A DNA stretch of 64,000 bases, taken from the IMG/VR virus record IMGVR_UViG_3300032167_000055. The stretch is one strand, 5' to 3'. This DNA is from an uncultured virus (IMG/VR IMGVR_UViG_3300032167_000055). Lineage: Duplodnaviria; Heunggongvirae; Uroviricota; Caudoviricetes. Made by a program: the position numbers and the translations under genes. The notes under the pieces are model-generated. The model did not search any database and had not been told where the DNA came from. It saw nothing but the letters and a program-made list of their open reading frames with translations. Positions 10,091 to 64,000 of the stretch are shown piece by piece (the first letter of the stretch is position 1; each line of letters begins with the position of its first letter).

Positions 10091-10100
10091 TAACTAACCT
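10091..10100 (-). repeat. Cassette 3'-end motif AGGTTAGTTA
   Basis: Same motif follows the stop codon of every second (adhesin-like) cassette gene: about 10091, 44272, 55902, 57144, 62603. Confidence 0.65.
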
Positions 10101-10106
10101 ACGTTT

Positions 10107-10694
10107 TTAAGCCGTATTTGTTAAAACAACTGATTGAACACCTATACCACCATTTACAAAATAATATTGATTTGAAGATCTATTATATAAATTTACTCTG
10201 GCTTTAATAGATGATAAATTTGACGTTGCCAATGTTAATTCTGGTTGGTAAATAGTACCGGCTTTAGAAGCATATGTGAATGTTACCAATGTTGTCCACG
10301 TCGATCCACCATTAGTACTATATTCAAGTGTTGCATCTCCATAGTTTGAATAAATACAAGCCCATAATTTAACTTTAGCATATGTGAAATTTTTAATATT
10401 ACTTGTAAAAGTCATAATGTCTTTTGTTGCTGAATATGATCCTCCAGAATTACGTGCTGTTTCACCGTTATTTGTATCATTTGATGCAATATAAGTTGTA
10501 TTATTTATAGAAACGGCAGTTCTACTAAAATAACAATTGTATGTTTGTTCAAATGACGCAGTAAATGCTGTTAAAGTTTGTGGTACCTCCCATATAGTAG
10601 TACCATTACATACAACTTTAGTTATATTAGTACCATTTACTTTAATACTACCTTCTGTAGTAGGTATAGTAGTTCCATTCATAACTATAGACAT
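10107..10694 (-). CDS. Putative tail-fibre tip adhesin (second gene of cassette 1)
   Basis: N-terminus MSIVMNGTTIPTTEGSIKVNGTNITKV shared with 55925, 57178 and 62625 ORFs; divergent beta-rich C-terminus; GGAGGT RBS. Confidence 0.75.
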   Translation of the reverse strand: MSIVMNGTTIPTTEGSIKVNGTNITKVVCNGTTIWEVPQTLTAFTASFEQTYNCYFSRTAVSINNTTYIASNDTNNGETARNSGGSYSATKDIMTFTSNIKNFTYAKVKLWACIYSNYGDATLEYSTNGGSTWTTLVTFTYASKAGTIYQPELTLATSNLSSIKARVNLYNRSSNQYYFVNGGIGVQSVVLTNTA

Positions 10695-10707
10695 ATTCTA
10701 CACCTCC

Positions 10708-11175
10708 CTAAGTGGTAATAGTTAATACTGTACCAGATAAAGATACTGTGGGAATAGTACCAGTTTTACTAGGAAGGGTTAGAGTAATATTAGACGTTGT
10801 ATTATTACCAGTTTGAATTTGTGTATATCCGGAAGATGTACCATACATACGAATTAAACCACGTCCATTACCAGCTGTACCCGATGCAGTTCCATTACCT
10901 AAATCTAAACGCCCGGTACCAACTCTACTAGTCGTTCCTGTCTCATAAGATGTTAAAAAAGCATAAGTATGTGTGTCTGAATTAATAGCTGAAAATGTTC
11001 TTGATATTACTCCAGACCAATATGAACCCGTACCACCCAAAATATATTCATCAGATATCGAAGGATATATGTCACCGGAAATAGTACCACCACTTAATGG
11101 TAAATAACTATGTGTATGACTACTATTAGCTTTACCGTTTACAGTAGTAGTTAGAGTTGTAATATTACTATTTAG
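10708..11175 (-). other. Silent tail-fibre C-terminal cassette 1 (no start codon)
   Basis: Frame opens at CTA AAT AGT AAT right after an in-frame TAG: LNSNITTLTT...SYLPLSGG...GNGTASGTAGN...SLSGTVLTITT; resembles the C-terminal part of 44937-46817. Confidence 0.85.
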
Positions 11176-11244
11176 CTAAATAAAGAATCTGTAAGTCCCT
11201 AGAAATATCGAGACTTACAGAAATTTTACTTAACTAAATTCCGT
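11165..11244 (-). repeat. 80-bp hairpin element, copy 1
   Basis: ACGGAATTTAGTTAAGTA-AAATTTCTGTAAGTCTCGATATTTCTAGGGACTTACAGATTCTTTATTTAG-CTAAATAGTAA; eight near-identical copies in the window. Confidence 0.95.
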
Positions 11245-11397
11245 CACCCTTACCATATTATCATCGAATTATAGACCTTTCGACAACTTTATGTAATACA
11301 ACTCATAACAAAAAAGATATACCCTTACGCTTTTACACGTAAGGGTAATCCAGCCAGTTAACCAAGGGTCTAATTTGGTTACTTTATTGTTATTCAT

Positions 11398-14300
11398 TTA
11401 CCATGGAAATGATCCTCCAGAATCACTGGAACCACCAAGACCATTCATATCATCGAAAAATCCCATATCATATCCACCATCATCTTCTTCAAACGTAGTG
11501 TATTTATTATCAGAATCAAGACCTTCTGGTATATAGTTAAGTGAACTATTAACCAATCTTGATGTTTCTGCTTGAGATCTTTCTATAGCGTTTCGTAATA
11601 TAGCCTCATAATCTAATGCTTTCATGGCTTCTCTTTCTTCCATGATTGCTTGAGCAACATCTGTAGGTAAAACTTTATTAAGCTCGGATTCGGTTTTCTC
11701 ATAGATGCCTTGATTACGAGGTTTTTCTTCTCTTTCACCAGGATAATAACCAAATATCTGTAAGTTATTACCATGATATAAAACATACATTGCGATTAAG
11801 TAAGACATTACAGAGTCATCGTGAACATATTTTTCGTTAATCTATACATCTCTGTATAGGTCAGACTATATCTTCATCTTATATTCTGTTACCAAATATA
11901 AGATGCCTCCAATTTCGGATTTCTCCTACTCTACTCGCTTCTTCACTATAGTATTTCTCTATAGTTATGCTTTCGATAGTCGTTGAACCTTACTTATTAT
12001 TTATAATAATAAGTCTTGGCTGCTGATTGTCTCTATTCATCAGATTGTCACACTTTACTGTACTGATGACCTAACGAGAGTTCCCAGCAATTAAAGAGGT
12101 TTAACCAGACCTCCACTATTCTATTCAAATTCTACAAATTTTTTGCCTTTTTCAAACTTTGATTTTAAATGTTTGACATTACTACGAATTTTTTCGTCAT
12201 ATTCCCATCCCATTTCATTTATAACCTCTCGTACTGAAAATCCTTGTTTAAAAAGATTTTCTATTTTAACGAGTTCATTATATGAAAAAATTGCAGAAGC
12301 TTTTTTAGTCTTTTTAAATTTATAGTTTTTACTAAGTTCTTTCCAAGTTTCTCTTTTACGAATACGTAATACAAAATCATACCCTAAATTATAATCATTA
12401 GATATTTTTTTAGGTGATATCCCTTTTGATAATAATTCACAAACCAATGTAGCCTCTTCTATTGTATGAGTTGTTAAATTACATTTTTCAGATGAAACAC
12501 TTGTTGGTTTCTTTAAACCAGTTCTAAAAGCATGGTAATTATTATACGAATATGTACACCAAACAAGATTAGAAATGTCATTATTTAATTTATCACCATC
12601 TTCATGATTTATAACTGGAAGATTTTCTGGATTAGGAATAAATCCTTTTCCAACTAATCTATGAATTAATTGTGTTTTGTATTCACCTGCTTTACCTAAC
12701 TGAAGATTTACGACTTTATATCCTGTATCTTTTGATATATATCCTTTAAGTTCTTTTTCTGTAAATATATTAAATATTCGACTATCCTCAGTTATTAAAT
12801 ATTTAGTTTGAATTTTATATATTTCATCATTATATTTAATATCAATAGTGATATTTTTCCCAATTATTCCATTTGATAAAGTTATAAGTTTTTTAAATTC
12901 AATTCCTTCTCTATTATCTTCTATTTCTTTTATTATTGGCAAAATAAATGCACCTCAATTCATTAATAATTAATGATATGTTGATGCATTATAAATGTAG
13001 AATTCATAGCGATTTTCGAGCCTGGACCAGCTGCAATCTTTCCTGATGATGTACGTACTAATCGAGATATATCTGTAATAACGTTCTCTGCAATAAAATC
13101 ATCTTTATTTTCAGAAATACGTCTAGCCAGAATAGCAAACATTGCTTCTCTAGAATGACCTTCTGTGTATACACCATAGAAAGATTTTTGTGCTGCTTGT
13201 TTTTTAAGCATTGACTCTATTGTCTCATATTCTTTTTTGTTTTCTTCAGTAAGATCTTTTGCTCTATCATAATATAATCTAGATGCAATTCTTGACTGAA
13301 GTAAATGGTCGATAATACCATCACCTACACTATTTCGTTCTACACAAACGATAGCTTTAGGTACATGGCGTGTTACTAATTCAATAATAATCTGTTCATA
13401 CAACGTTTCACCAACATAAGAACAAGCAAATTCAAATGCAGGTCTAGTTGTATATGGATTAATACCAGTAATAGCATTATTATCCTTATTTGTACCTGTT
13501 GAACAGTCAACACCGACAATGTAAGGAATAGAAGGATCTAATTCTTCATAAATCATAAACTGGTAGTAATCTTTTACAAATAAAACATCGATTGGTTTAT
13601 GCATATTCTCGACGATATACTCAATATCTTCCTGAGGATAAGGAGAAAGTGATGAACCATGTAATCTCTGAAGTAGGATTTCTCGACGAACAACAAGTGC
13701 ATCACCGATCATATTACTCATCTTAGATAACCATTCTTCATCCAAACCAATCTGATAATACTGGAACTCAATATAAATAATGCGGTTAGATTCACCAGCT
13801 TTAGCAAATTCTTTCATTTCATCTTTAGTCATATCGTATAAACGCTCTGACCACTTAACGGTCTTATCAAGAATTATTTGAGCTGAAATACCAGCATTAC
13901 TATCAAGATCTCCTGGGGTACCATATTTTGTTAAAAATATTAGACTATATCTTCAATATTAATTCTGTTACCAAATTAATATTGCCTCCTATTTCGGATT
14001 TCTCCTACTCTACTCGCTTCTTCACTATAGTATTTCTCTATAGTTATGCTTTCGATAGTCGTTGAACGTTATATAATCGTAAAGTTAAAATTTTCAAACA
14101 TATAATATTTTAGTGTAAATAATAAAAACAGTCCGGTTCATAAGGAGTTATTATTTACCCTAATCTTGTATAGTGTAATATAAAAGGGATTACACACTGT
14201 ATCAACACGAACCGGTATACAAGAATCGCAGGCCTAGGGGCGTAACGTCTAGGCTAACCACCATACGGCAGTATTGGTTGGGACGTGGTGATTATGAGGC

Positions 14301-15425: not shown

Positions 15426-15531
15426 GTAATGGATTACCTCCTTTCATTAAAATAAAGTCCTTTCAACGAAAAATTAAACTTTTCATAGATATATTATTAT
15501 AGTGACAAATTAATATAGGGAGGTAACGCTC

Positions 15532-15873
15532 ATGGAAAAACTAAATAAAGAAAAATCCAAAGCTCCTTCAATAGATGAACGAAGGAAAAGAAGCTACAAG
15601 CTAAAAGTTTCATTATCTCATGCATATGTAAATTTATGTGATAAATTAAATCCGACAAATAGTAAGTTTTATATGCATTGTCAAGATATTATCGACCGGG
15701 ATGAAACTATTGAACTCGGTTGGAAAGACAAAGAGATGATAAATTACGGACTAAACGGTTCTGTGATTCGTTCTATATCGGAAGATGAAAATGAGATATT
15801 AGAAGATTTCAATGAAATATTCTCTGAGAGAATGGATGAATTACTTGGTATTAAACCATGTAGAAGAGGTTAA
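15532..15873 (+). CDS. Hypothetical protein
   Basis: 113-aa ORF, GGAGGT RBS, upstream TATATTAT motif. Confidence 0.65.
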   Translation: MEKLNKEKSKAPSIDERRKRSYKLKVSLSHAYVNLCDKLNPTNSKFYMHCQDIIDRDETIELGWKDKEMINYGLNGSVIRSISEDENEILEDFNEIFSERMDELLGIKPCRRG

Positions 15874-16085
15874 CCGTAAAGTCGGAATTTATAAACATAT
15901 AATATTTATGTGAAATAAAGGAAATGATGATAATAAAAATCGTCTATCCTTATAAAAACTTCATAGCGCTATAGCACATATTCATAGTGATCTATAGGCA
16001 GACACAACTAAATAGCGCTCACAATAAAGTGAGGCAATTAAATTAATTTTATGGTGGAGGCGAAAGCCAAGAGCCGGAGGTTTAT
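15872..16085 (+). promoter_or_regulatory. Conserved promoter plus 5' leader, copy A
   Basis: Blocks AACCGTAAAGTC, AAACATATAATATTT, CATAGCGCTATAGCA, TGATCTATAGGCA, AACTAAATA and ATGGTGGAGG...CCAAGAGCCGGAGGT are shared with 29263-29420. Confidence 0.7.
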
Positions 16086-21348: not shown

Positions 21349-21428
21349 ACGGAATTTAGTTAAGTAAAATTTCTGTAAGTCTCGATATTTCTCGAGACTT
21401 ACAGATTTCTTATTTAGCTAAATAGTAA
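21349..21428 (+). repeat. 80-bp hairpin element, copy 2 (opposite orientation)
   Basis: ACGGAATTTAGTTAAGTAAAATTTCTGTAAGTCTCGATATTTCTCGAGACTTACAGATTTCTTATTTAGCTAAATAGTAA. Confidence 0.95.
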
Positions 21429-21702
21429 CGCAGAAATAAATTATATTCAAACAGGTAGAATAATAAATAGTGTTGTTGCATCAAAAACTCGTACAACTTT
21501 TGATATAGAATTTGATACAGAATATAGAGTTGTACCTAAAGTATTTGCAACATTTATGTCAAATTCAGAAGATTATAATTATGGAAATCTTAATATTTGT
21601 ATAGGAAATATTTATAAAACTGGATTTGAACTTCATGTACACAATACAAATGATGGTGATTTAGAACCAGGTGTATTATGGATTGCAGTAGGTAAGATGT
21701 AA
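21418..21702 (+). other. Silent tail-fibre cassette 2 (H-type lectin/gp53-like domain)
   Basis: LNSNAEINYIQTG...FDTEYRVVPKVF...KTGF...VLWIAVGKM*; no start codon at its 5' end; not in the ORF track. Confidence 0.8.
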
Positions 21703-23083: not shown

Positions 23084-23203
23084 AAAGTAAAAGTCTATAA
23101 ATACAAAGATATATTATTTTATAGATAAAGAAAAAAATAAATGAGGTAGAGTGAGAAATCATTCTACCTCACATTCTTTGTCAAAAATACAAGAAGGAGG
23201 AAA

Positions 23204-28566: not shown

Positions 28567-29166
28567 TTAAATGAAAAACTCATTTACATATAATGGGATA
28601 CTGACTGAAATTGTTTGACGAGGATATAGATATACTGCTCCGCCAGTTGTAATGGTTAAATTAGCTGTATATATTTTTCCGTCAGATGTAGTTGAAATAC
28701 ATATTTCTTTTTTAAATTCACGTGAAGGTAAATAATTACTATTAGTAATGGTTGTAAGATGATAGGATGTTTTTGCTATTAAATCAGCACTTGGGGTAGA
28801 ATTAAAAAATATATTTTTTATTTTACCGCTTTTTGATACAGTAACTTGAATATATGACGATGTAAAACTATCTACAACAGGATCAAATGATTCTTGAAAT
28901 GCTAGTGTTTTTAGTATATATCCATTTTCATGAATAGTCGATCTATTCCATAAATATACTTTTCCGGTATTTGCTATATCTGCAAATAAAATAGATCCTA
29001 CATCACCTGATGTTCGAGAAATACCGACATACATAGAATTACTATCACCTAAATAACAAAATCCTGATTTCACTGAACTAAATTGTGTATGCATTGTATA
29101 TGCTAAATCATTAACATTTCCATTAGATCCAAACGTCCATGTAGGAGGGTAATTCTTACTATTTAG
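28567..29166 (-). other. Silent tail-fibre cassette 3
   Basis: Frame opens LNSKNYPPTWTFG... directly at the element core and continues into track ORF 28567-29094. Confidence 0.8.
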
Positions 29167-29235
29167 CTAAATAAAGAATCTGTAAGTCCCGAGAAATATC
29201 GAGACTTACAGAAATTTTACTTAACTAAATTCCGT
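29156..29235 (-). repeat. 80-bp hairpin element, copy 3
   Basis: Near-identical to the other copies. Confidence 0.95.
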
Positions 29236-39613: not shown

Positions 39614-39982
39614 TTATTTTATACGTACTAATGTAACGCGCCAATTAAATGCACGTGCCTCACTTACAGAATCATTATGAAATAAATAAATTGTAAATAT
39701 GCCGTTAGTTATATTTACTATAGATACATGCTGAATTGTATTTCTTCCTGTCTGATATGCATACATAAATGTATTATTGGTATTGATGCCATTAGAATTT
39801 ATTTGTACGTTTGTATTTTGTCCAACCCATGCTTCAACTGTGATAATTGCGCAGTAAATACCATTAGGTATGTCATTTACATTTGTACTTGTACTTCCAG
39901 TTCCACCACCTTCACTTCCAACACATGTCATTTGTCCATATGATGTAAATATATCTCCAATAACAGATGCGTTACTATTTAG
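39614..39982 (-). other. Silent tail-fibre cassette 4
   Basis: LNSNASVIGDIFTSYGQMTCVG...IPNGIY...VTLVRIK*; frame opens at the element core. Confidence 0.8.
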
Positions 39983-40051
39983 CTAAATAAAGAATCTGTA
40001 AGTCCCGAGAAATATCGAGACTTACAGAAATTTTACTTAACTAAATTCCGT
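39972..40051 (-). repeat. 80-bp hairpin element, copy 4
   Basis: Near-identical to the other copies. Confidence 0.95.
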
Positions 40052-44936: not shown

Positions 44937-46817
44937 TTATGAGACAATGTCAATATAAGTATATTCAATCCACCATTTTGTTGTAGTTGAATACTCAGTA
45001 CCATTCAAATAGGCATATGCTAAAGATATATTAAAACTTTGATCTATATCCCAATATACAGCTCCACCATTAGAATCAGAAACCCCCATATTTTGAAAAT
45101 ATCCTGCTCTTATTCTTGAAACGTCAGATTTCCTTGGTATTTCCGTTGATACTACAATAGTAGTACTTCCATTTATCTGGGCAAATACTTGCATAGAAAG
45201 TATAACTCCACCAACACCAATCAACCCAGCTATTTCATTTGTACTAACTTTTCCAGTCTTAGTACTACCAACAACATGTTTTATCGTGTTGTCACTCACT
45301 AATACTCCAGCTTCTCCAGGTAATTTTAAAGTATAATTATCTCTTCTATTAACTGTTGGTATAATATCAGCATAACCGCCCCACTTATTATAAAGACGCA
45401 ATCTACCAGTAGAATTTCCAGCTGTTCCTGACGAAGTAGCATTACCAACCATTAGATATGCTATTCCTTCTGCAGATGTTGTACCTACATTAGAAACTGC
45501 AAAACTTCCGCAATTAGATGATGTATTTGTACCATCATATATATACATGGTTTTAACAAATGAATTTGTCCATACTCTTGTTGTCGAACCTAATGAATAT
45601 GATACATTAGCACTAGGTGTTACATTTCTACTTGTTAATGTACCAGTTAATGTTCCACCTGATAAAGGTAAATAACTACTCATATTACTATTTAGTGTAT
45701 CAATCTGATTTTGCAACAAATAGCCCTGGTTTGCTGTAAGCGCCTTATTGGTTACTCCGTTAGCACTTGCAGAAGCACAACTATCTATCAACCAACCAGA
45801 AAGTGTACCAACTTTTGCAGCAGTTCCGGTATAGTTTGTACCGTTAATGTAGTTAGAAGTTGAACTTCCTAAATAACATGTACCGGTAAGTAAAGAGCTG
45901 GAAGTAAGTCTTCCTGCAGTTGTATCAAGGTAAACACCAGTATCAAATACCTGAGTACCAGTATTTGTTGTTGCAGAAGTAGTACCTGTAATATAAGCTT
46001 TAGCTGTAGTATTCAAGGTATTTGTAACTTTTGTATCAGAGTTAGCATCACTTGTCAATGTAAGAGTAACGTTTTTAATTGCTGTTACACGACCATATGC
46101 ATCTACTGTTACATAAGGCACAGTGAATGATCCTGAATCTGCTACAGTTGCATCTGCAGAAGATCCATATGAACCTGCTGTTGCGCCAGATGTAGCAAGT
46201 CTTTCAGCTGCTAATGTACCACTTTTAACATTACTTGCATTTAAGTTTGTTAATGCAGAACCATTACCAGAGAATGATGTTGCAACTAACTGACCTGATG
46301 TTGTACTTACATAAACACCAGTATCAAAATATTCAGCAGAAGGCATTCCTGCTGCATTATTAGGAGTACCAAGTAAGTAGAACTTAGTGGTATTCTTATT
46401 TTCAACATATGCAGGATTTACACCTGCAACTACGAGGTAATTAGTACCATCGTAAACGAACTCAACAGAAGCGCCAGCACGAATAACGTTAGCCTTTAAA
46501 GCTGCACCTTCGTAATGAATTGCCTTTGCACCTGTACTATTTACGTTCAATGTAGCACTTGCTACAGTAATAGCATTTGTAAATTTAACGGTAACATGAG
46601 CACCTGCCTTAAGAACAAAACCTGTTGCAGAAGCTACTTTTGCAGCTGTTGCAGCGGCTGTAGAACAAGTACCGTAGAACATTACCTTTCCTTCAATTGT
46701 AACGCCGGATGTCGAACTTGTGTGGACATCGGCGAGTGTATTCTTTGGATATAATATATCCTGATTACCGCTTGAATCAATGCGGGTCATCTCAATATGT
46801 TTTCTTGTAGTCGCCAT
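44937..46817 (-). CDS. Complete tail fibre / receptor-binding protein (putative expression locus)
   Basis: 626 aa, Thr/Ser/Gly-rich; 'ILYPKNT', 'YGTCSTAAATAAKV', 'ALTANQGYLLQNQIDTLNSN'; AGGAGG RBS and late promoter motif. Confidence 0.88.
   Translation of the reverse strand: MATTRKHIEMTRIDSSGNQDILYPKNTLADVHTSSTSGVTIEGKVMFYGTCSTAAATAAKVASATGFVLKAGAHVTVKFTNAITVASATLNVNSTGAKAIHYEGAALKANVIRAGASVEFVYDGTNYLVVAGVNPAYVENKNTTKFYLLGTPNNAAGMPSAEYFDTGVYVSTTSGQLVATSFSGNGSALTNLNASNVKSGTLAAERLATSGATAGSYGSSADATVADSGSFTVPYVTVDAYGRVTAIKNVTLTLTSDANSDTKVTNTLNTTAKAYITGTTSATTNTGTQVFDTGVYLDTTAGRLTSSSLLTGTCYLGSSTSNYINGTNYTGTAAKVGTLSGWLIDSCASASANGVTNKALTANQGYLLQNQIDTLNSNMSSYLPLSGGTLTGTLTSRNVTPSANVSYSLGSTTRVWTNSFVKTMYIYDGTNTSSNCGSFAVSNVGTTSAEGIAYLMVGNATSSGTAGNSTGRLRLYNKWGGYADIIPTVNRRDNYTLKLPGEAGVLVSDNTIKHVVGSTKTGKVSTNEIAGLIGVGGVILSMQVFAQINGSTTIVVSTEIPRKSDVSRIRAGYFQNMGVSDSNGGAVYWDIDQSFNISLAYAYLNGTEYSTTTKWWIEYTYIDIVS
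45685..45695 (-). repeat. 11-bp core CTAAATAGTAA inside the complete fibre gene
   Basis: Identical to the last 11 bp of the 80-bp element, same reading frame (L375-N-S-N). Confidence 0.85.
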
Positions 46818-46894
46818 ATCTCGAGCGCCTCCTTTTCTATTATTCTTTCATGAAAAAATAATTGAGACCCATAGATTTCTCTATGGTAATTACT

Positions 46895-46906
46895 TAGTAG
46901 AATGTT
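46895..46906 (-). promoter_or_regulatory. Late promoter-like motif AACA-N6-TA
   Basis: AACA-TTCTAC-TA; the same spacing occurs upstream of many structural genes (starts at 3072, 9976, 18424, 20668, 34683, 48197, 51304, 58181, 60895); matches the AR9 late consensus. Confidence 0.7.
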
Positions 46907-47009
46907 TTTATATTAGAAAGCTGTGTAGATGTGTAAAAAAATCTCTGAAATCCTTATATTTTCGATGATATATTATTATCATGAATATTCTAAGGAAGGA
47001 GGTTTTAAC

Positions 47010-47180
47010 ATGAGTTATATTGATAACTTGAGAAAGTTATACAACGAAATGAAACTAGCAAACGGTTTTGATACCGATGCTAGTTTCATGACAGCTTGGC
47101 AGTCTGATCCAAACAGATATGCCAACATTTTCTCAGTTAGAATGGCTTTGATTCAGGCATTGTCTGATCAGTTGTTCTAA
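47010..47180 (+). CDS. 56-aa hypothetical protein divergent from the fibre gene
   Basis: ATG after AGGAGG; upstream TATATTAT; downstream terminator hairpin. Confidence 0.65.
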   Translation: MSYIDNLRKLYNEMKLANGFDTDASFMTAWQSDPNRYANIFSVRMALIQALSDQLF

Positions 47181-47328
47181 CTAGAAAACAAGAGGTCAAA
47201 ATGCTCATACAAGCCAATCTTGGAATATTCAAGTAAGGGTAGCTGTAACTACCCTTACTTTTTTTGTTATTTTATCGATTAAATATAATTTTTTTTAAGT
47301 TACTTAACTTTTTGGGTTTTGTTTAGAA

Positions 47329-47346
47329 TACTTAACTAAATTCCGT
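47329..47346 (-). repeat. Isolated 18-bp left arm of the 80-bp element
   Basis: ACGGAATTTAGTTAAGTA exact match, same orientation as the fibre gene, separated from the 11-bp core by 1633 bp. Confidence 0.85.
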
Positions 47347-49717: not shown

Positions 49718-49759
49718 AATAATTATCACCTTACTCCGATTTGGAGTAAGGTGATATAT

Positions 49760-51304: not shown

Positions 51305-51399
51305 CCTTTCGTTTTAATAGTTTAGTATAATGTTTTTATTTGTAGTATTTATGTGGAAAAATAAATGAGAATGAAGATATCTTCATTCTCATTTATTTA

Positions 51400-51687
51400 T
51401 TATACTGAATTTAACTCAAATAAATATATTACACAACTGCACTGTTGAGATGATCCGTATAAATTATATAATGTAACTGTTACTGAAGTTGCCGATGTAT
51501 TAGATATAGTAACTGAACATAAAAAAGTTGAAGAAATAAATGCATGTGGACTTTTTGTATAATTATATGAAGACAAATCTAGGGTGATTATTTCATAAGC
51601 GTTTACCGCAATAGGATTTGTACTTTTAACTGAAAATGATCTAAAATTTCTAAAAACAATTCCCGATTTATCCACCTTACTATTTAG
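51400..51687 (-). other. Silent tail-fibre cassette 5
   Basis: LNSKVDKSGIVF...YTKSPHAFIS...SVTVTLYN...; frame opens at the element core. Confidence 0.8.
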
Positions 51688-51756
51688 CTAAATAAAGAAT
51701 CTGTAAGTCCCGAGAAATATCGAGACTTACAGAAATTTTACTTAACTAAATTCCGT
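51677..51756 (-). repeat. 80-bp hairpin element, copy 5
   Basis: Near-identical to the other copies. Confidence 0.95.
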
Positions 51757-51779
51757 CCCCACACTCCAAAAAATCATAC

Positions 51780-51914
51780 AAAAAGAACGGAGCTGGTGAG
51801 AGTAGGTAGCCAAATCCTACTCTCACCAGAACAAAAGTTATTACATGCAAGTTTACCTCTAAATAATGAGTAATCTGCTCTATTATTGGAATTTTCATAT
51901 GGATATTATCCATT
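51780..51914 (-). ncRNA. Candidate late small RNA A
   Basis: AACA-AATCTT-TA promoter motif, 5' hairpin ATGGATA-A-TATCCAT, strong 3' hairpin CTGGTGAGAGTAGG/CCTACTCTCACCAG. Confidence 0.4.
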
Positions 51915-51972
51915 AAAGATTTGTTATACTAATAAAAAAATAAAGGGATCCAAAAGATCCCTTTATTTCGTC

Positions 51973-53346: not shown

Positions 53347-53357
53347 TTTGTCCTCCT

Positions 53358-53699
53358 TTAAAATGTAAATCTGTAACCACCTTTTACAGCAGCTCCATTT
53401 CCTTTTTCTAAAACCTGTATTTCAGTAAGGTATTTAATAGATTTTTTTATTTTCTTTACTTTGATTCCTAATTCTTCACTCATTAGATCTATATGGATCT
53501 TTGTAAAATTATTAGGATCAGGTCCTGGATTTGTCGTATTAATACGACGGGTTTTGTTATAACCACTTAATACTGTAAGCAAATAGCAAATTACTTTAAG
53601 ATCTACAAAACTCAGATCATATAATGTAATAAGTTCTCTAAATGCTTCTTTTGGGACGTGAAAATTTTGTCTAAATTGTGCTACATCCACTGTACTCAT
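53358..53699 (-). CDS. Putative winged-helix DNA-binding protein
   Basis: 'MSEELGIKVKKIKKSIKYLTEIQVL' HTH-like segment. Confidence 0.55.
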   Translation of the reverse strand: MSTVDVAQFRQNFHVPKEAFRELITLYDLSFVDLKVICYLLTVLSGYNKTRRINTTNPGPDPNNFTKIHIDLMSEELGIKVKKIKKSIKYLTEIQVLEKGNGAAVKGGYRFTF

Positions 53700-53786
53700 T
53701 TTAAATCTCCTTTACTATAAAAATTTATAGTTGAGAAGGTTTTTACTATATCCTTCTCAACTATTTCAAATAAATAATATACTTCT

Positions 53787-54971: not shown

Positions 54972-55014
54972 AAAATAATCTCCTTTTAAGATTTTATGGG
55001 ACTGTCACTATAAT

Positions 55015-55129
55015 GAAAAATGAAAGTGAGATAGGATACAAAAATGTATCCTATCTCGAAAGGTACTTTGTGTTCGATTTTGATTCTTTAAAAAGACCAA
55101 ATTAGTATTTTTATATGGAATTATCCATT
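55015..55129 (-). ncRNA. Candidate late small RNA B, or attenuating leader of the helicase gene
   Basis: AACA-GATTTG-TA promoter motif, 5' AATGGATAATTCCATAT like candidate A, 3' hairpin GAGATAGGATACA/TGTATCCTATCTC plus U-rich tail. Confidence 0.4.
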
Positions 55130-55153
55130 ACAAATCTGTTTATCATTTATTAA

Positions 55154-55756
55154 TTATTTATACATAATGAAATATGATCTCATATTTGTATTTGTTAATC
55201 CTAACCAATAAGGAGATTTTATGATTACTGATGTTGAAGTTTTTTCATATACATCTGAAGCACTAACAAATTTTCTATTAGTACCATTACTTGTATGCCA
55301 GTTTGACACTGAATAAGTTCCATCTGACATTAAGAAACAAGCTGTTCCTACGGCACCACTCTTAGCTTCAACAATATATCCTAGTAATTGATTAAAATCA
55401 GATGGTGAAATATATGATGTTACATCAGTAGTCCAAGGTTTATATATAACAAACTTAGCTTCAATTTCCGCTTGTATCCATTTACCATCATGTAAACTTT
55501 TAAAAGGGGTTACTGTATCAGCACCGCTTGGTATGTATCCCCAATTTCCTTCCGGATCTTGTCCAAATGAAATATTAGTTAAACTATTATGAGTATGACT
55601 CTCAAATGAGAACCCACCTAAGTCATACCATCCATCTATTGTACATTTTAACTTTGAACCAGTCCAACCAATATTAACCGTATTAGAGCTTTGATCTACA
55701 CCGCCTCCTTGTCTAACAGGAACAAATCCTAGTGAATTTTGCTTGTTACTATTTAG
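55154..55756 (-). other. Silent tail-fibre cassette 6
   Basis: 200 sense codons with no start at the 5' end: LNSNKQNSLGFVPVRQGGG...VNIGWTGSKL...GYIPSGADTVTPFK...; phage fibre-type motifs; not in the ORF track. Confidence 0.85.
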
Positions 55757-55825
55757 CTAAATAAAGAATCTGTAAGTCTCGAGAAATATCGAGACTTACA
55801 GAAAACTTACTTAACTAAATTCCGT
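55746..55825 (-). repeat. 80-bp hairpin element, copy 6
   Basis: Near-identical; GTAAGTTTTC variant. Confidence 0.95.
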
Positions 55826-55924
55826 CCCCCCTGTCACCACTCTTCACAAAGTCAATATATCATATCTATAAATCAATCGCAAGAGATATGATTTTACTAT
55901 ATAACTAACCTATACATTCATATG

Positions 55925-56539
55925 TTAAGGTTTTATAACAACACTCGTTAATGTTAATTTACCATAACCAGTACCATCAAAATATCCTTCAGTGTCATAT
56001 CGGATTCTCAGTTTATATGTGCCTGATAATGATGGTAATGTAAATGTTTTATTAACAGCTGTAGATTGAAGTACTCCTCTACCATCAGCACTGCCACTTA
56101 TACTTGCAAGACTCATAACAGTAGTTGTTGCTCCTGTTGATGTATTGTATAATTCTACTGCCATCTTATTAACACCATAATGGTTACCATTCCAATATAC
56201 AGTACCAGTTATAGTTAATCTTTGTCCTGATGGAGTAAAGGTATTTGTTGAAAGTAAGTACGCATATCCATAACCATTATATCCACCACCAGCATCAATT
56301 TGAATAGTGATACTATTACCAGATAAAACTATAGGATTAGAAGGACGGTCATAATCAATCCAACCATCAGTATAACCACTTGATTGAAGAGTGTATGACG
56401 TAATATTAATGTCAGTAATCTTTTCCCATACTGTAGTAGTTGTAGAACCTTTTACAACATTTACTTTTGTTACATTAGTATTACCAACTTTAATCGTTCC
56501 TGATGAAGGTATAGTGGTTCCATTTACAATAATAGACAT
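55925..56539 (-). CDS. Putative tail-fibre tip adhesin (second gene of cassette 7)
   Basis: MSIIVNGTTIP... shared N-terminus; GGAGGT RBS. Confidence 0.75.
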   Translation of the reverse strand: MSIIVNGTTIPSSGTIKVGNTNVTKVNVVKGSTTTTVWEKITDINITSYTLQSSGYTDGWIDYDRPSNPIVLSGNSITIQIDAGGGYNGYGYAYLLSTNTFTPSGQRLTITGTVYWNGNHYGVNKMAVELYNTSTGATTTVMSLASISGSADGRGVLQSTAVNKTFTLPSLSGTYKLRIRYDTEGYFDGTGYGKLTLTSVVIKP

Positions 56540-56550
56540 ATTATACCTCC

Positions 56551-57072
56551 CTAAATTGTAATAGTAAGTGTTGTACCGGATAATGACGCTCTACAAAGTG
56601 TAAAATCTGTAGTATCTACTCTACATACAATACTGGATCCATTCCATCCTAAATACATTATATTTGAATAAGATGGATGCCTTCTGACCAAGTTTCCATT
56701 AGATTCTACTCCAGTCATTGTTGCATAATTTAGAGATGACAGATATGTTATATCTACAAGTTGTCTCCATGTAAATATTTCATGACCAGCTGAAATAACT
56801 CTATAATGAATACCATTATCATTAACCATTGGAAATGCTACTTCAGTATAGTATCCATCTCCATTTGCATGATTCATTCGTATTTTATGAAACCATGTAT
56901 TTGCAACAGGTGTTGAATTCTTCTTTGGACCTGACGTTGTTCCATCTCCGGTCGTATTCATATATTCTAATCCAGATTTACCATATACTGGAGCATTAGA
57001 ACCTGAATGTAATAGATATGCTAATCCTACAGCAGTTTCTCCAGAAATAACTTTATTTACGTTACTATTTAG
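56551..57072 (-). other. Silent tail-fibre cassette 7
   Basis: LNSNVNKVISG...SLSGTTLTITI*; frame opens at the element core. Confidence 0.85.
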
Positions 57073-57141
57073 CTAAATAAAGAATCTGTAAGTCTCGAGA
57101 AATATCGAGACTTACAGAAAACTTACTTAACTAAATTCCGT
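57062..57141 (-). repeat. 80-bp hairpin element, copy 7
   Basis: Near-identical; abuts the AGGTTAGTTATA end motif of cassette 8. Confidence 0.95.
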
Positions 57142-57177
57142 TATAACTAACCTAGAAATATAAAATATCTTTGATTT

Positions 57178-57663
57178 TTATGTGAAAGTACATGTCAAAG
57201 ATGTCGTTATAGTATGCGTAGATCCTATATCTCCACCAGATACTCCTATAGTAACGGAAGATTTTCCAGAAATATTTATTTCTAAAGTTTTTGTATATGT
57301 AGAACCTTGAGATGTTCCATCCCATTGTGTTCGTTTGTATAAAGAATAAACAGTTCCATCAACAACAACATTAGCATCTACTCCGTTACCATCCCAGCTA
57401 TTCCATGAAGCAGTTTTTACAGAAGCACTTATAGTTAATTTAGTATGACCACTAAGTGATACTGTATCTAACGTAGAACTATAAGTTCTGTATTCTTGAT
57501 CATCACTTGAATTATCCGTATATGAATATGTTTTAGTTATTGGTGTTGCTGATGATTTCCATACACTAGTTCCATTACATTTAACTTCTGTTATTTGCAC
57601 ACCATTAACTACAATTTTACCCTTTGATGTAGGTATAGTGGTTCCATTTACAATAATAGACAT
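57178..57663 (-). CDS. Putative tail-fibre tip adhesin (second gene of cassette 8)
   Basis: MSIIVNGTTIP... shared N-terminus; GGAGGT RBS. Confidence 0.75.
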   Translation of the reverse strand: MSIIVNGTTIPTSKGKIVVNGVQITEVKCNGTSVWKSSATPITKTYSYTDNSSDDQEYRTYSSTLDTVSLSGHTKLTISASVKTASWNSWDGNGVDANVVVDGTVYSLYKRTQWDGTSQGSTYTKTLEINISGKSSVTIGVSGGDIGSTHTITTSLTCTFT

Positions 57664-57674
57664 ATTATACCTCC

Positions 57675-58010
57675 CTAAATTGTAATAGTAAGAGTAGTTC
57701 CAGATAATGTCATATGACCTATATTCCTCATGTTTTTATATCCAAAATTACCATCACTTTTCTTATATCTGAATAGTAAATCATAACCATTATTTGCATC
57801 AGTATAAATATATGGTCCTAAACCACTAGCTGAGCCTAAATGGATACTTGCAAAAAATGGAGAAGAACCTGTGGCAGGGCGTGATTGTGAATCCCATATA
57901 GCGTTATTGGATGAATTATATAATACAAGATTTCCATCACTTTGTAATATAAATGTATATCCGTTTTGTGCAGATTTAAAACAAGCACCACTAGGTCCAT
58001 TACTATTTAG
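57675..58010 (-). other. Silent tail-fibre cassette 8 with a bulb-type lectin motif
   Basis: LNSNGPSG...YTFILQSDGNLVLYNSSNNAIWDS...TLSGTTLTITI*; QxDxNxVxY motif; not in the ORF track. Confidence 0.85.
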
Positions 58011-58079
58011 CTAAATAAAGAATCTGTAAGTCCCGAGAAATATCGAGACTTACAGAAAACTTACTTAACTAAATTCCGT
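58000..58079 (-). repeat. 80-bp hairpin element, copy 8
   Basis: Near-identical to the other copies. Confidence 0.95.
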
Positions 58080-58180
58080 GACGACCACCCTACTCTCCAA
58101 AAATATAGAAAAATCTTATACCTATCTAGATTTTCTTAATTTTTCAACATTTTTGTAATGTATAGAAAGGAAGTGAAAAA

Positions 58181-58900
58181 ATGAACTTATCTTCTCTTAT
58201 TACAAGAATAAAATTAGAACTCGGTATATATGCTATAGCATTACCTATTGAAGATATAGATGGAACTATTAGTAAAGTAATTAAAGATATAACTTTAAGA
58301 ACTTATTCCCAGTATTTTCCACAATATGATATTATAAGAAAACCTAGTGCTGAAATAGAAAAGGCTTCTAGAAATCTTGAATATACTGATTTGATTTTAG
58401 AGGTTCCTACAGGTCAAGAAATAGTTTTTGTTGCTGATGTATATTATGATGCATCTGATGTCAGTGGCATTGGTTATTATGGTGCAGGTATGCCTATATA
58501 CACACCAAATATGTTAGCAGATGTTTTAACTACTAATGTAGGAGCTGATTTAACAAATATGATGTTTCCTAAATTAACATGGAGATTTGATACTCCTAAT
58601 AGGCTTAGAGTATGGCATTTATATGGAGGAAGCATATTTATTAAATATGCTAAACTTCATGATCAATCACTTGCATCTATTCCTGTATCTCAAGAAGAAA
58701 CTTTCTTTAAAATTGCATTAATTGATGTAAAGAAAGTATTATATAGTGTACTTAAACACTACAACGAACTTGAAACTGCTCACGGACGTATCAGTTTAAA
58801 AATTGATGACTGGGCTGAAGCAGATAGTAAACGTGAAGAATTGCTAAGAGAGTGGGATGATAATTTCCACTTAGAGCAAAAGACCATTTATTGGGCATAA
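58181..58900 (+). CDS. Putative virion structural (possibly neck) protein
   Basis: 239-aa ORF, upstream AACA-TTTTTG-TA; 'LITRIKLELG' N-terminus reminiscent of neck proteins. Confidence 0.55.
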   Translation: MNLSSLITRIKLELGIYAIALPIEDIDGTISKVIKDITLRTYSQYFPQYDIIRKPSAEIEKASRNLEYTDLILEVPTGQEIVFVADVYYDASDVSGIGYYGAGMPIYTPNMLADVLTTNVGADLTNMMFPKLTWRFDTPNRLRVWHLYGGSIFIKYAKLHDQSLASIPVSQEETFFKIALIDVKKVLYSVLKHYNELETAHGRISLKIDDWAEADSKREELLREWDDNFHLEQKTIYWA

Positions 58901-60895: not shown

Positions 60896-61123
60896 GATTG
60901 ATTACTTCCTTTCTATAAGTTTATTAATACCTTGTTTTGGTATAAAAAAGAAAAAAAAATAAATTGCACCAAAGGTGCTGTACGAATAAACACCATACAA
61001 CTATGTACAAGCACCTTGTACACGAAAATAATATACTTTTATAAATCGTTACTTTTACAAAGTAAATACTAATTTTTTCATTGATATATTATTTTAATAG
61101 ATAAAAGAAAGGAGTGATCGTTA

Positions 61124-61969
61124 ATGAATTACTGGTCAAAAAAGACACTAAACAAACAACATGCAATTGAACACCTTACAGAAGTATGTAAGTATTTCGC
61201 AAAAGAAATCTCAAAAAGTATTGAAAATACCGAAGAATATACAGAAGATGATTGTAGAATGTTTCTTATTCGTAACTTAGAGAGTGAAGACTCTATGGGT
61301 TATTGTATTTCTGTAGATTTTGAAAGAAAAGGTATCATCGAAGCAGTTCTCGATAATAAAAGTAAATCGAAAATTGCAATACTCAATTTTGCATCTTATA
61401 AAAATCCTGGTGGGATGTATCTCAATGGTTCTTCTGCTCAAGAAGAGTGTATTTGTCATTCCAGTACATTATTTCCAGTATTAGAATCGTTCAATGATAC
61501 GTTCTATCATTTCAACAGAGAAAATAAAAACAAAGCACTCTATACGAATAGAATGCTGTATAGTCCTGATATAGTGATTATGGAAGGAAACAAAAAACGA
61601 TTAGTAGATGTTATCACTATTGCAGCACCTAATAGAGGAGCTGCACTTAAAAACGGAGTATCCGAAGATGAAATTGAAACTACTATGAGAGAACGAATAA
61701 TTTGTACACTCGAGGTTGCTAAATCTCATGGTGTTAAAACATTATTCCTTGGAGCATTCGGTTGTGGAGTCTTCAAAAACAATCCTGAAGTAGTTGCAAG
61801 AATATTTTGTGATGAACTTAAAAAGTATCCAGAGATGAAATTCGTATTTCCTATTCCTGATGAAGAGAATTACAATGCATTTTCATCAATATTAACAGAA
61901 ACATTTGTTAGAGGATTGCTTGGAGATAATCCATCAGGGAAAGATCCAATATCAATAACTGAATTTTAA
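61124..61969 (+). CDS. TIGR02452-family macrodomain (PARG-like ADP-ribose hydrolase)
   Basis: 'LNFASYKNPGGMYLNGSSAQEECIC', 'LYSPD', 'LGAFGCGVFKN'. Confidence 0.85.
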   Translation: MNYWSKKTLNKQHAIEHLTEVCKYFAKEISKSIENTEEYTEDDCRMFLIRNLESEDSMGYCISVDFERKGIIEAVLDNKSKSKIAILNFASYKNPGGMYLNGSSAQEECICHSSTLFPVLESFNDTFYHFNRENKNKALYTNRMLYSPDIVIMEGNKKRLVDVITIAAPNRGAALKNGVSEDEIETTMRERIICTLEVAKSHGVKTLFLGAFGCGVFKNNPEVVARIFCDELKKYPEMKFVFPIPDEENYNAFSSILTETFVRGLLGDNPSGKDPISITEF

Positions 61970-62074
61970 GATAAGAGGGTGGTGGTTATTCATCACCCTC
62001 TTATTTTTTTTTCTATAAAGACGTTTTCGTAAATTATCACATTATTATAAGAAAAATGAAAGGGATGGTTTAAA

Positions 62075-62566
62075 ATGAATAGTGTGTTATTAAATGATGA
62101 AAGAACCGATCTCTGTTTATCTTTACCTCCGTTATTAAAACGGCTCGCAATTATGTCATATAAGTTATCTTCTAAATTCTTTGATTCTCTCAAAGTTAGA
62201 TGCTTATCCCATGGTATTGAATATCCAGGGGATGACTTTTTGTCTGATGTAGCAGTACTGATGTACTTGTTACCTGGTAAAGTTATGACAGAAGAGGAAC
62301 TTTCTATACGTTATACCGCTTTAAACTATTCTATACATATTAATGAATTTTTACGTATCATGAAAGTAATGAATGAATTCATTCTTCTTGATAAGAGTAA
62401 TGCATTAAAGATGTATACTGTAATAGAAAAAGCGAAACATGAAGACCCTATTCTGTTTATCCTCTGTACATTAGACTATGCTTCGAAGCTTAAAGTATAT
62501 CTTAACCACAGATACGACGACGTCGGTTGTGTGTTGTCTGATTGTATGGATCATTTTCTTGAATAG
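62075..62566 (+). CDS. Hypothetical protein
   Basis: 163-aa ORF. Confidence 0.6.
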   Translation: MNSVLLNDERTDLCLSLPPLLKRLAIMSYKLSSKFFDSLKVRCLSHGIEYPGDDFLSDVAVLMYLLPGKVMTEEELSIRYTALNYSIHINEFLRIMKVMNEFILLDKSNALKMYTVIEKAKHEDPILFILCTLDYASKLKVYLNHRYDDVGCVLSDCMDHFLE

Positions 62567-62624
62567 GAAAAGACCAGTGAGTGTTTTTACTCACTGGTCT
62601 TTTAACTAACCTATTTTCATAAAT

Positions 62625-63527
62625 TTAGACTAATGTAATTTTAGCCCAACCATTTCCATCTCGAACACCATTTTCCATAGAACCTGATGTGACTCCTCCT
62701 ATATATCCAGAACCACCACCAGCTCCAGACCATCCTCCACCAGGACCACCACCATATAATCCGCCTCCGCCACCAGCAGAATTATGGATATCACTATTAG
62801 CTTTTCCGAAAAATCCTCTATATAGGTCAGGGGTTTCACCTATATCATTATAACCACCGGCAGTTTGTGTACCGCCAGTTCCATATGAAAAGTAATCATC
62901 TGAAACATAATCTCCTATAACGGTTCCATTTCCACCAGTAGTTCCACCACCAGTACCACCAACACCATAATGCGTATCATCGTGATATGAAGCGCCTCCT
63001 CCACCACCAGCTACAATAAATAATCCGTTTGTAGATCCATGATCAGCTAACGTTGAGTTGAATGTACCTATATGAGTACATCCTCCTCCACTTCCATTAT
63101 AATATAATACTGTAGGTGCATTAGCACCACCATTATATCCACCAGGGTAAGTTATTGGCTGAGTGTTTATTTCACTACCTCTTTGACTACAATCTGTTCC
63201 TTGTCCACCCACACAGACATATATAGTTTGACCTGCTGTAAGATTTGCATATCCTTTAGCATATCCTCCAAAACCACCTGCAATATGGTTAGTTACATGA
63301 CCGCCTCGTGCACCCTTAACTTCAAGAAGGTATGTACCTGTAACAGGTACAGTAAACGCTTGTACTCCTCCTGTATAATTAAATTCTTTAGATGAAAAAC
63401 TAGAAACTTGCCATACAGTTGTTGTTACTCCATCTTTCACCACATTAACTTTAGTTATTTTAGTAGATCCAACTTTTAAACTACCTTCTGTAGTTGGTAT
63501 AGTAGTATTTCCAACTTTAATAGCCAT
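62625..63527 (-). CDS. Glycine-rich adhesin-like protein (second gene of cassette 9)
   Basis: MAIKVGNTTIPTTEGSLKVG shared N-terminus; 'FNYTGGVQ.FTVP.TG.Y.LEV.GA.GG', 'IVAGGGGG', 'GGGSGYIG' glycine-rich domain. Confidence 0.8.
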   Translation of the reverse strand: MAIKVGNTTIPTTEGSLKVGSTKITKVNVVKDGVTTTVWQVSSFSSKEFNYTGGVQAFTVPVTGTYLLEVKGARGGHVTNHIAGGFGGYAKGYANLTAGQTIYVCVGGQGTDCSQRGSEINTQPITYPGGYNGGANAPTVLYYNGSGGGCTHIGTFNSTLADHGSTNGLFIVAGGGGGASYHDDTHYGVGGTGGGTTGGNGTVIGDYVSDDYFSYGTGGTQTAGGYNDIGETPDLYRGFFGKANSDIHNSAGGGGGLYGGGPGGGWSGAGGGSGYIGGVTSGSMENGVRDGNGWAKITLV

Positions 63528-63540
63528 ATCACAATACCTC

Positions 63541-64000
63541 CTATAAAGTAATAGTTAATGTTGTACCACTTAAAGAAAAATGCGAAGATCTCATTATTTT
63601 TGATATAGTTCCACTATTATTAATATATTTAAGATTTCCATCATTATCTAAATATAATATGCCTGCAACAACTCCAGAATTATGAAAACCATAACTAGCT
63701 CTATTTGAAGTTGTACTAGCATTACTAGCCTCTGCTGAAAAATGGGCTGCAGTATAGTTATTATTAGCTGGGGCAAATGCCATAGATACTTTTTGTGCTC
63801 CAGTGAATGAATTCGATGTTTTTACTGCTTTTGCATTAAGTTGTGTTTGTATATCGCTGGTAACATTTGATAAATATCCAAGTTTATCAATAGTAGTTTT
63901 ATTATTTATTTTATAATTGCTATCAATTGTCATTGTTTTATTAAATGGGTGAATCTGAATCATTGCAGATTCACCTACTACTGTCGTACCATCTTCAGAT
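63541..64000 (-). other. Probable tail-fibre cassette 9 (5' end outside the window)
   Basis: Frame open to the window edge; ends SLSGTTLTITL* like cassettes 1, 7 and 8. Confidence 0.7.

Follow-up and report, generated by a model that had tools for sequence, protein, structure and literature searches.

A repeated docking element in a jumbo phage genome

The 64,000-nucleotide stretch analysed here (the window; virus record IMGVR_UViG_3300032167_000055) is part of a genome of 278,849 bp with 32.1% G+C, a single contig whose record is rated complete. The genome belongs to a gut jumbo phage that carries two sets of multisubunit RNA-polymerase genes, tubulin, gyrase and a split family-B DNA polymerase. 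By the large RNA-polymerase subunit, its closest cultured relatives are AR9/PBS1, the Staphylococcus and Listeria jumbo phages and phiR1-37, with about 30-33% identity. The subject of this work is a complete fibre gene in the window together with a library of silent fibre C-terminal cassettes, each of which stands behind a copy of an 80-nt element that we call the docking element, or dock.

The docking element consists of an invariant 18-nt left site L (ACGGAATTTAGTTAAGTA), a 51-nt hairpin filler and an invariant 11-nt right site R, which is the core of the element (CTAAATAGTAA). Intact elements number 16 in the genome, and the window holds the following eight:

11165..11244, minus strand: docking element (L 18 nt, hairpin filler 51 nt, R 11 nt)
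21349..21428, plus strand: docking element, the only plus-strand copy in the window, core at 21418
29156..29235, minus strand: docking element, dock g153861, whose filler has a 4-nt difference between the window and contig G003 on one side and the genome record G000 and contigs G005 and G006 on the other
39972..40051, minus strand: docking element, fold -16.4 kcal/mol as sense-strand DNA (z -7.1)
51677..51756, minus strand: docking element, terminator-like on the cassette-sense strand
55746..55825, minus strand: docking element
57062..57141, minus strand: docking element
58000..58079, minus strand: docking element

A first-pass annotation of the window had reported eight such elements, and all eight were recovered, seven on the minus strand with cores at 11165, 29156, 39972, 51677, 55746, 57062 and 58000 and one on the plus strand with its core at 21418. 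Further copies, which it had suggested looking for in the rest of the genome, bring the number of intact elements to 16. Over these 16 no position varies in L (0/18) or in R (0/11), 8 of the 51 filler positions are variable, and every position checked in the flanks (12 nt per side) varies. The core occurs exactly nine times in the window, namely in the eight elements and at 45685-45695 in the fibre gene. When up to one mismatch is allowed, there are 13 matches in the window against 4.31 expected, and none of 100 shuffles reached 13.

The whole element is a near-palindrome which can form a two-stem hairpin with 15 and 14 pairs. Folded as DNA, the cassette-sense strand is more stable than the other strand (-16.4 versus -13.0 kcal/mol; z -7.1 versus -5.1), because the imperfect pairs are G.T on the sense strand. 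The inner stem with its TTCTTTATTT tail received a terminator-like score on the sense strand in all four elements scanned, and stops in all three frames are present within every one of the eight window elements. Within the elements, R sits in a perfect 14-nt palindrome (TATTTAG/CTAAATA). L contains the hexamer ATTTAG that is also found at R in the opposite sense, and ACGGA, which is part of L, lies outside the hairpin stem.

Two filler polymorphisms (positions 20-21, AA/GT; position 47, G/A) occur across the docks in all four combinations, which points to recombination among fillers or to physical shuffling between docks. A seventeenth dock is located outside the window (G000 96095-96175), and its core has a 1-nt insertion (CTAAATTAGTAA). 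Behind it lies a cassette of about 100 codons (LNSNVTSALKCRI... if the extra T is ignored). Because of the insertion this cassette would be out of frame or stopped after joining, and it may therefore be a disabled cassette. A partial element of 60 nt, also outside the window (G000 41459-41518, minus strand), comprises L and the hairpin and lacks both the R core and a cassette; it may be a terminator only, or a decayed dock. Antisense cassettes starting at L were considered, as the reverse complement of L reads LNS, and rejected, the frames behind it having only 6-29 codons.

Silent cassettes and downstream tip genes

Each of the 16 elements leads into a fibre C-terminal open reading frame (ORF) which has no start of its own and begins LNSN/K... 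in the same frame (CTA AAT AGT AAx). The cassettes lie between genome positions 19,230 and 171,852 (152.6 kb), 12 in the same orientation as the fibre gene and four in the opposite one. Their open frames measure 94-457 codons. The cassettes of the window, and the partner genes found downstream of some of them, are:

10708..11175, minus strand: silent cassette, 155 codons, ending ...SLSGTVLTITT
10107..10694, minus strand: downstream partner gene, 195 aa, with its own ribosome-binding site (RBS) and ATG, starting 13 nt past the cassette stop
21418..21702, plus strand: silent cassette, 94 codons, with an H-type lectin match (Pfam PF09458, E 8e-7, 29.5 bits, cut-off 24)
28567..29166, minus strand: silent cassette, 199 codons, fused in frame to the constant fibre region in contig G001
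39614..39982, minus strand: silent cassette, 122 codons
51400..51687, minus strand: silent cassette, 95 codons, LNSKVDKSG...
55154..55756, minus strand: silent cassette, 200 codons, first in-frame start at codon 143
56551..57072, minus strand: silent cassette, 173 codons, ending ...SLSGTTLTITI
55925..56539, minus strand: downstream partner gene, 204 aa, with its own RBS
57675..58010, minus strand: silent cassette, 111 codons, with a weak bulb-lectin match (18.1 bits, cut-off 32.4) and its first start at codon 94
57178..57663, minus strand: downstream partner gene, 161 aa, with its own RBS
63541..64000, minus strand: 3' part of a ninth cassette, 215 codons, ending ...SLSGTTLTITL
62625..63527, minus strand: downstream partner gene, 300 aa, with an ALK/LTK-type glycine-rich domain (Pfam PF12810, E 1.3e-23)

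The element of the ninth cassette is just past the end of the window, with its core at genome position 118839.

None of the 16 cassettes has a Shine-Dalgarno match at its first in-frame ATG, GTG or TTG. Among 247 ORFs with 100 aa or more, by contrast, 147 show such a match, of at least 4 nt, at the start of the longest ORF. In four cassettes the first in-frame start codon appears only at codon 65, 80, 94 or 143, and in the cassette of the 58000 element it is downstream of the lectin-like match (residues 19-47). The in-frame stops of the elements and the start-less LNSN/K frames of 94-200 codons, both described in the first-pass annotation, are thereby borne out for the window.

The C-terminus that is at present attached to the fibre gene is related to three silent cassettes with 30-45% identity. 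The annotation had seen such a resemblance in the first cassette of the window, and 10708..11175 indeed aligns to the attached C-terminus with 38% identity over 131 aa (E 1e-19). The remaining cassettes are mostly unrelated to one another, and those which are related are only 24-60% identical. A Peptidase_S74 intramolecular chaperone domain occurs in two of the 16 cassettes, and residues 4-61 of cassette 55154..55756 align to internal parts of PHROG profiles with 631-780 positions. Two lectins had been proposed as well; the H-type lectin of the 21418 cassette passes its cut-off, and the bulb lectin of the 58000 cassette stays well below it. The cassette domains are of kinds typical of fibre ends. 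Open frames of 94-457 codons in DNA with 32% G+C argue that the cassettes are not decaying relics.

Five of the 16 cassettes end in ...LSGT(T/V)LTIT(T/I/L), and each of them is followed by an RBS and a separate gene, the tip gene. We infer that the gene at 10107..10694 is co-expressed with its cassette. At 55154-58079 on the minus strand, three units follow one another head to tail, in the order dock, cassette, tip gene, dock, cassette, tip gene, dock and cassette; part of the dispersed library is therefore arrayed. Both the cassette ends (...LSGTTLTIT) and the tip-gene starts make up separate repeat families (D2, D3 and D6), which could be a second level of module swapping.

The occupied dock and the expressed fibre gene

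At one further locus, which we call the occupied dock (g137332), L and R are separated by a module of 1,633 bp where the other docks have the 51-nt filler. The features of this locus are:

44937-46817, minus strand: complete fibre gene, reading ...QNQIDT/LNSN... across the core at 45685-45695, in the same frame as the cassettes
45696..47328, minus strand: module, 1,633 bp between L and R
45696..46817, minus strand: constant fibre N-terminal part, 374 codons, MATTRK...QNQIDT
44937..45695, minus strand: attached cassette of dock g137332, R core at 45685-45695 plus 252 codons, LNSNMSSYLPLSGGT...
47329..47346, minus strand: L site of the occupied dock, the same 18 nt with which all 16 elements begin, 511 nt before the fibre ATG
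47010..47180, plus strand: small gene of the module, 56 aa from an ATG behind AAGGAAGGAGG, with a strong RBS

The module comprises a 511-nt leader, in which the small gene is encoded divergently, and the 1,122-nt constant N-terminal part of the fibre. It is a single-copy sequence, as none of its 25-mers recurs in the genome. A terminator-like hairpin (47231-47260) lies behind the small gene, and the 56-aa protein has no Pfam or PHROG match. Residues 254-318 of the constant region hold a motif common to many phage fibre proteins. Apart from records of the same phage, relatives of the constant region in viral contigs were limited to motif-level matches (TDTKVT...TGTQVFDTGVYLDT) in unrelated long fibre proteins, and the fibre gene used as a nucleotide query had no match among public phage genomes. 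The first-pass annotation had located the same 11 nt in the same frame within the fibre gene (45685-45695, ...QIDT/LNSN...), and this is correct. Its description of the gene as the only fibre gene has to be given up, as a 1,467-aa protein with fibre repeats is encoded outside the window.

Natural variants among near-identical contigs

Six contigs from viral-contig collections, which represent five samples, are 99.995-100% identical to the genome. Their structural differences from the genome are found only at segments bounded by L and R. Three structural changes, all of this kind, stand against four single-nucleotide polymorphisms (SNPs) in about 378 kb of aligned sequence, so that rearrangement at these sites is much faster than mutation in the genome. 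None of the six contigs shows an inversion.

In G000 and in the window, L and R flank the module. Contig G002 (86,578 bp) is colinear with genome positions 57923-146082 and has the 4 SNPs, and at its fibre locus the module is absent. Instead L, a 51-nt filler and R make up an intact silent dock before LNSNMSSYLPL.... This filler is a loop variant that is found once in G000, at dock g153861, 16.5 kb away, and it is absent at every other dock on G002. In contig G001 (33,012 bp, 0 mismatches) the module is joined at R to the cassette of g153861, and the contig then continues for 23.5 kb beyond. The junction is in frame and gives an intact fibre ORF of 573 aa, as the first-pass annotation had predicted for a joining at the core. 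The alternative junctions that it had expected in other populations are thus represented by G001, and by the silent fibre locus of G002.

The filler of dock g153861 itself exists in two states. One type is present in G000, G005 and G006, and the other, with four linked differences, in the window and G003; no further difference accompanies this change in 107.7 kb. G003 begins exactly on the first base of R at the fibre locus. In pattern scans of viral contigs, the right and left junctions of the module were met only in G001 and the empty-dock junction only in G002. The patterns for module junctions and hairpin had 0 matches in metagenome contigs and 0 in genome contigs.

These contigs might also be explained by a static architecture, with cassettes that are relics or have another mode of expression, and with variants that are assembly artefacts caused by the 80-nt repeat. 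All variants do come from short-read metagenome assemblies, and G001, read literally, means the loss of essential genes. The sequence shared with other loci is only 11 nt at the G001 junction and 18-21 nt at the left junction of G002, which is below the usual assembly word sizes; an assembler could therefore not have bridged these places without reads that span the junction. Such an artefact would not explain why the filler of G002 is missing from all other docks on that contig, or why the filler replacement at g153861 appears in five records and in two states. The open frames of 94-457 codons speak against decaying relics. We consider a static architecture highly improbable.

The point differences of G002 from the reference are at G000 64461, 104001, 111855 and 128827 only. 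The one at 64461 affects a second codon position in the recombinase gene described below. Contig G004 stops at the base preceding 111855, suggesting that strains are mixed within samples.

Sequencing-run contigs

Part of the stretch is contained, as Logan contigs, in 24 DNA runs from animal gut and faeces, and no RNA run was among those listed. Between 39500 and 58200, Logan contigs of four runs break off at the module borders with exact 30-nt overlaps, ending at 45695 (X1, X4), 45714 (X2) and 47346 (X5) and starting at 47317 (X4, X5). In X1 the module-junction contig has a depth of 3.9 versus 7.3-8.9 beside it, and another contig runs unbroken through the L junction. Two cassettes with similar starts share just a 29-nt prefix, so a repeat at k=31 does not explain the break at 45695. 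Breaks of this kind fit a mixture of occupied and empty states within samples, for which contig ends alone are a weak hint. Among the joints listed, the shorter side measures 20-30 letters (mostly 20-22) and resembles repeat or foreign matches, and none leads from the module to another cassette within 39500-58200.

Proposed exchange between docks

We think it likely that an expression module relocates between docks by exchange with the filler at L and R. With stops in three frames and the look of an intrinsic terminator on the sense strand, the filler would keep a cassette silent. The L-to-R segments of two docks would then be exchanged, the module replacing the filler at the new dock and the filler filling the old one, while the essential genes in between would be neither lost nor inverted. 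The product would be an in-frame ...QIDT/LNS(N/K)... fibre with a new tip, transcribed from the leader of the module itself. A reciprocal L-to-R exchange between two direct-oriented docks is the simplest account of the reference, G002 and G001, because the marked filler stands at g153861 in the reference and at g137332 in G002, and because the module stands before the g153861 cassette in G001. The first-pass annotation had described the switch as a joining of fibre and cassette at the core. The contigs indicate that the 1.6-kb module, that is promoter plus N-terminus, replaces the 51-nt filler and that the cassettes stay put.

Engineered recombinase-mediated cassette exchange swaps a segment between two different flanking sites. 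The phage might possess a natural form of it, with the module hopping among at least 16 hairpin-marked docks over more than half of the genome and trading places with a terminator placeholder; for this wider proposal we hold the balance to be even. The other 14 docks would then be used in the same manner, and a change of dock may change the host range. Inversion schemes with L and R as inverted copies of one site were tried and rejected, as they never place the module correctly before a direct-oriented cassette.

The junction in G001 could also have arisen by a shufflon-type single crossover at R only, in which the core is used in the way that the Rin shufflon of Bifidobacterium prophages uses its rix sites. 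Inverted cassettes would be reached by inversion, crossovers between direct cores would be dead-end deletions like G001, and L would merely be part of a terminator. For Rin, an XerD-like enzyme is proposed to act on 11-bp sites (PMC6109161), and an 11-bp site with an XerD-like enzyme is what we find here. G001 is, literally, a core-to-core deletion junction, and four cassettes are inverted relative to the module. Such a crossover fails on G002, in which the filler cleanly replaces the module between intact L and R and is a variant otherwise confined to g153861. It fails as well on the perfect invariance of the 18-nt L, including the ACGGA outside the stem. It would leave 12 of the 16 cassettes unreachable, and the inversions it calls for are seen in 0 of 6 contigs. 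We therefore regard a crossover at R only as quite unlikely.

Joining of constant region and cassette at the RNA level, by trans-splicing or by template switching of the polymerase with the hairpin as a signal, would be a further way to new tips. In its favour, the sense strand forms the better hairpin, with G.T(U) wobbles, and the phage encodes multisubunit RNA polymerases and carries a group I intron. The joins are, however, already accounted for by differences in the DNA, and a splicing element was not found at the core. This route appears extremely improbable to us.

The exchange of L-to-R segments need not involve a dedicated enzyme, if the elements are regulatory terminators at which general recombination occasionally exchanges segments. 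Candidates for such a role would be the UvsX-like recombinase, the RusA resolvase and structure-specific nucleases acting at cruciforms. The phage does encode a UvsX-like recombinase (window 21779-23083), RusA and HNH endonucleases, the long near-palindromic element could extrude as a cruciform, and the four combinations of filler polymorphisms suggest recombination among fillers. Modular shuffling at repeated stem-loop elements in T4-type phages would be comparable. Yet general recombination would have no more than 18 and 11 nt of homology to use at the occupied dock, and the breakpoints fall exactly on the invariant blocks. Moreover, the frame is kept at 16 of 16 docks and all 16 cassettes are fibre ends. 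From the exact breakpoints, the kept frame and the consistent nature of the cassettes we argue for a selected, site-specific system, and general recombination by itself seems an unlikely explanation.

A candidate recombinase and points against exchange

As a possible catalyst of the exchange at L and R we propose a XerD/XerA-like armless tyrosine recombinase. Pfam scanning covered 274 of the 276 ORFs of at least 70 aa (the two others straddle region borders) and was combined with five six-frame family searches. The single recombinase found is a tyrosine recombinase of 341 aa, encoded outside the window at genome positions 64172-65194. It matches PF00589 with 128.5 bits, carries a SAM-like N-terminal domain and reaches 231 bits with NF040815 (cut-off 220). 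Its best relatives of solved structure are XerA-like 4a8e (E 9e-32), XerA and XerD, and the motifs of the catalytic region align, including ...LGHS...LIY.... The likely catalyst would be this enzyme, the only recombinase found in the phage; as to whether this Xer-like enzyme catalyses the exchange, we see about as much in favour as against.

Six-frame searches of the complete genome gave 0 matches to the serine recombinase family PF00239 (a control matched in 12 of 14 genomes), to the Y1-HUH transposase family PF01797 and to the reverse transcriptase family PF00078, and no IS110-type enzyme was found. The first-pass annotation had named recombinase, HUH nuclease and reverse transcriptase as genes to look for, and only the first of these is represented, by the XerD/XerA-like enzyme; Y1-HUH, reverse transcriptase and serine invertase did not appear. 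The enzyme is not an integrase of the IntI type (TIGR02249 82.7 bits, cut-off 265; NF011946 50.6 bits, cut-off 435). A relative with 38% identity was followed up and dismissed, since its contig shares nothing else with the phage and lacks the repeated element.

Several points weigh against relocation by exchange and against the proposed enzyme. The recombinase gene adjoins no dock (the closest two are 6.1 and 7.3 kb away, the occupied one 72 kb) and could serve another purpose such as dimer resolution or integration. The ends of the module and the ends of the filler have no common sequence outside L and R, and a canonical recombinase site of arm, spacer and arm cannot be drawn at R of the occupied dock. 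In viral contigs, L with the start of the module has one context only, and no left flank of another dock precedes it. Only two of the 16 docks are seen in use, every variant record was assembled from metagenomes and belongs to a single, nearly clonal phage, and the Logan contigs allow more than one reading. A relative with the same dock system was not found in searches of phage genomes, viral contigs, metagenome contigs and genome contigs. Finally, G001 taken literally is a 16.5-kb deletion which removes, among others, the gene for a 1,612-aa RNA-polymerase subunit. Because G001 retains the left flank of dock g137332, there are two ways to read it: as the product of a crossover at R only, be it an intermediate or a dead end, or as a path that the assembler took across the 1.6-kb module in a sample with both states.

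Other features of the window

Two AT-rich repeat families, with the cores ...CATATAATATTTT... and ...GATATATTAT..., are located upstream of genes and probably represent classes of phage promoter. The module itself contains one copy, which precedes the small gene. The copies in the window are:

14075-14128, 15464-15517, 15872-15925 and 29263-29316: AT-rich motif
23080-23121, 46948-46987 and 61055-61103: further AT-rich motif copies

A group I intron (window 11842-12119, minus strand; Rfam RF00028, 82.2 bits, full length) adjoins an ORF for an HNH endonuclease at 12121-12942. A 130-nt stretch of this intron recurs at 13942-14071 with 91% identity, and a second intron at that place was rejected as it has no Rfam match. 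A NUMOD4/HNH homing-endonuclease gene (26875-27804, plus strand) is directly downstream of the RNA-polymerase subunit gene at 24950-26761, and another NUMOD4 protein is encoded elsewhere in the genome. A WDGH-domain protein (47373-47912, minus strand; PF25311, E 1.7e-42) is encoded directly next to the occupied dock. The window also encodes a protein with a microbial-type poly(ADP-ribose) glycohydrolase domain (61124-61969, plus strand; PF10021, E 1.2e-25).

Comparison with known systems

Host-range switches such as Gin, Cin, Min, Rin and the diversity-generating retroelements act on a few adjacent cassettes. Mu Gin, P1 Cin and p15B Min produce alternative fibre C-termini via site-specific recombination at a short site within the gene. 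They depend on a serine invertase and on adjacent invertible segments, whereas this genome has no PF00239 match. The shufflon of plasmid R64 relies on the tyrosine recombinase Rci and offers many cassettes for the C-terminus of an adhesin; these are clustered, rearrange by inversion only and belong to a pilus. The R64 sites have only one conserved arm plus a spacer, and in this respect L, with 18 conserved nt, and R, with 11, would be similar to them.

In the vsa locus of Mycoplasma pulmonis, a single promoter-plus-5'-end is brought to silent genes without 5' ends by site-specific recombination. That system differs from the present one in being bacterial, in using clustered inversions and in having no placeholder which swaps with the expression site. 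With integrons the docks share promoterless cassettes, an imperfect palindrome that forms a hairpin, and an Xer-related tyrosine recombinase. Unlike in integrons, there is here no IntI-type integrase, and no attI/Pc platform or array next to the recombinase gene. The hairpin stands before the cassette, where attC lies at the 3' end, and it is the part with the promoter that appears to move.

A diversity-generating retroelement does not account for the library, as PF00078 is absent and the cassettes are unrelated or 24-60% identical, not mutagenised copies. Hairpin-guided transposition of the IS200/IS605 type is likewise unsupported, with 0 matches to PF01797. The arrangement also departs from the repeated stem-loop cassettes of T4-type phages in that the module is flanked by 18-nt and 11-nt ends of the element and not by full copies.

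The first-pass annotation had set the cassettes apart from Gin/Cin inversion, clustered shufflons and diversity-generating retroelements, and these do differ; its list lacked a close relative, the Rin tyrosine-recombinase shufflon (PMC6109161). Like the present system, Rin is phage-encoded and combines one constant N-terminal part of a receptor-binding protein with several start-less C-terminal cassettes. An asymmetric 11-bp repeat heads each cassette and recurs inside the expressed gene in both. Both also have an armless XerD-like tyrosine recombinase, which in our phage is predicted from the protein sequence. The 3-5 cassettes of Rin form a single cluster next to its recombinase gene, in inverted orientation, and switching is by inversion (PMC6109161). 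The phage studied here differs from it in having 16 cassettes over 152.6 kb among replication, transcription and structural genes, 12 of the 16 in direct orientation. It further differs by the second invariant site L with a terminator-like filler, and by variants that are a replacement (G002) and a direct-repeat junction (G001) and not inversions.

Text searches of the literature found no description of such a system. Word searches in jumbo-phage overviews from 2021 and 2026 met no mention of inversion, and in the 2026 review none of cassette or shufflon. What is new is probably the dispersed and mostly direct-oriented layout and the use of exchange instead of inversion, and what is known is the logic of a host-range switch similar to the Rin shufflon.

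One fibre could in principle take 16 different ends, several of them with a tip protein of their own. The spare tips lie among core genes of the jumbo phage, and what moves appears to be the half with the promoter. If so, exchange would let dispersed, direct-oriented cassettes be used safely, without deletion or inversion. An Xer-like enzyme working with 18- and 11-bp sites would represent a new mode of programmed recombination, and the system would be a compact natural tool for the exchange of DNA segments. A single reference assembly would show just one of many states, and large phages would hold a far bigger repertoire for host recognition than their annotated fibre genes suggest.

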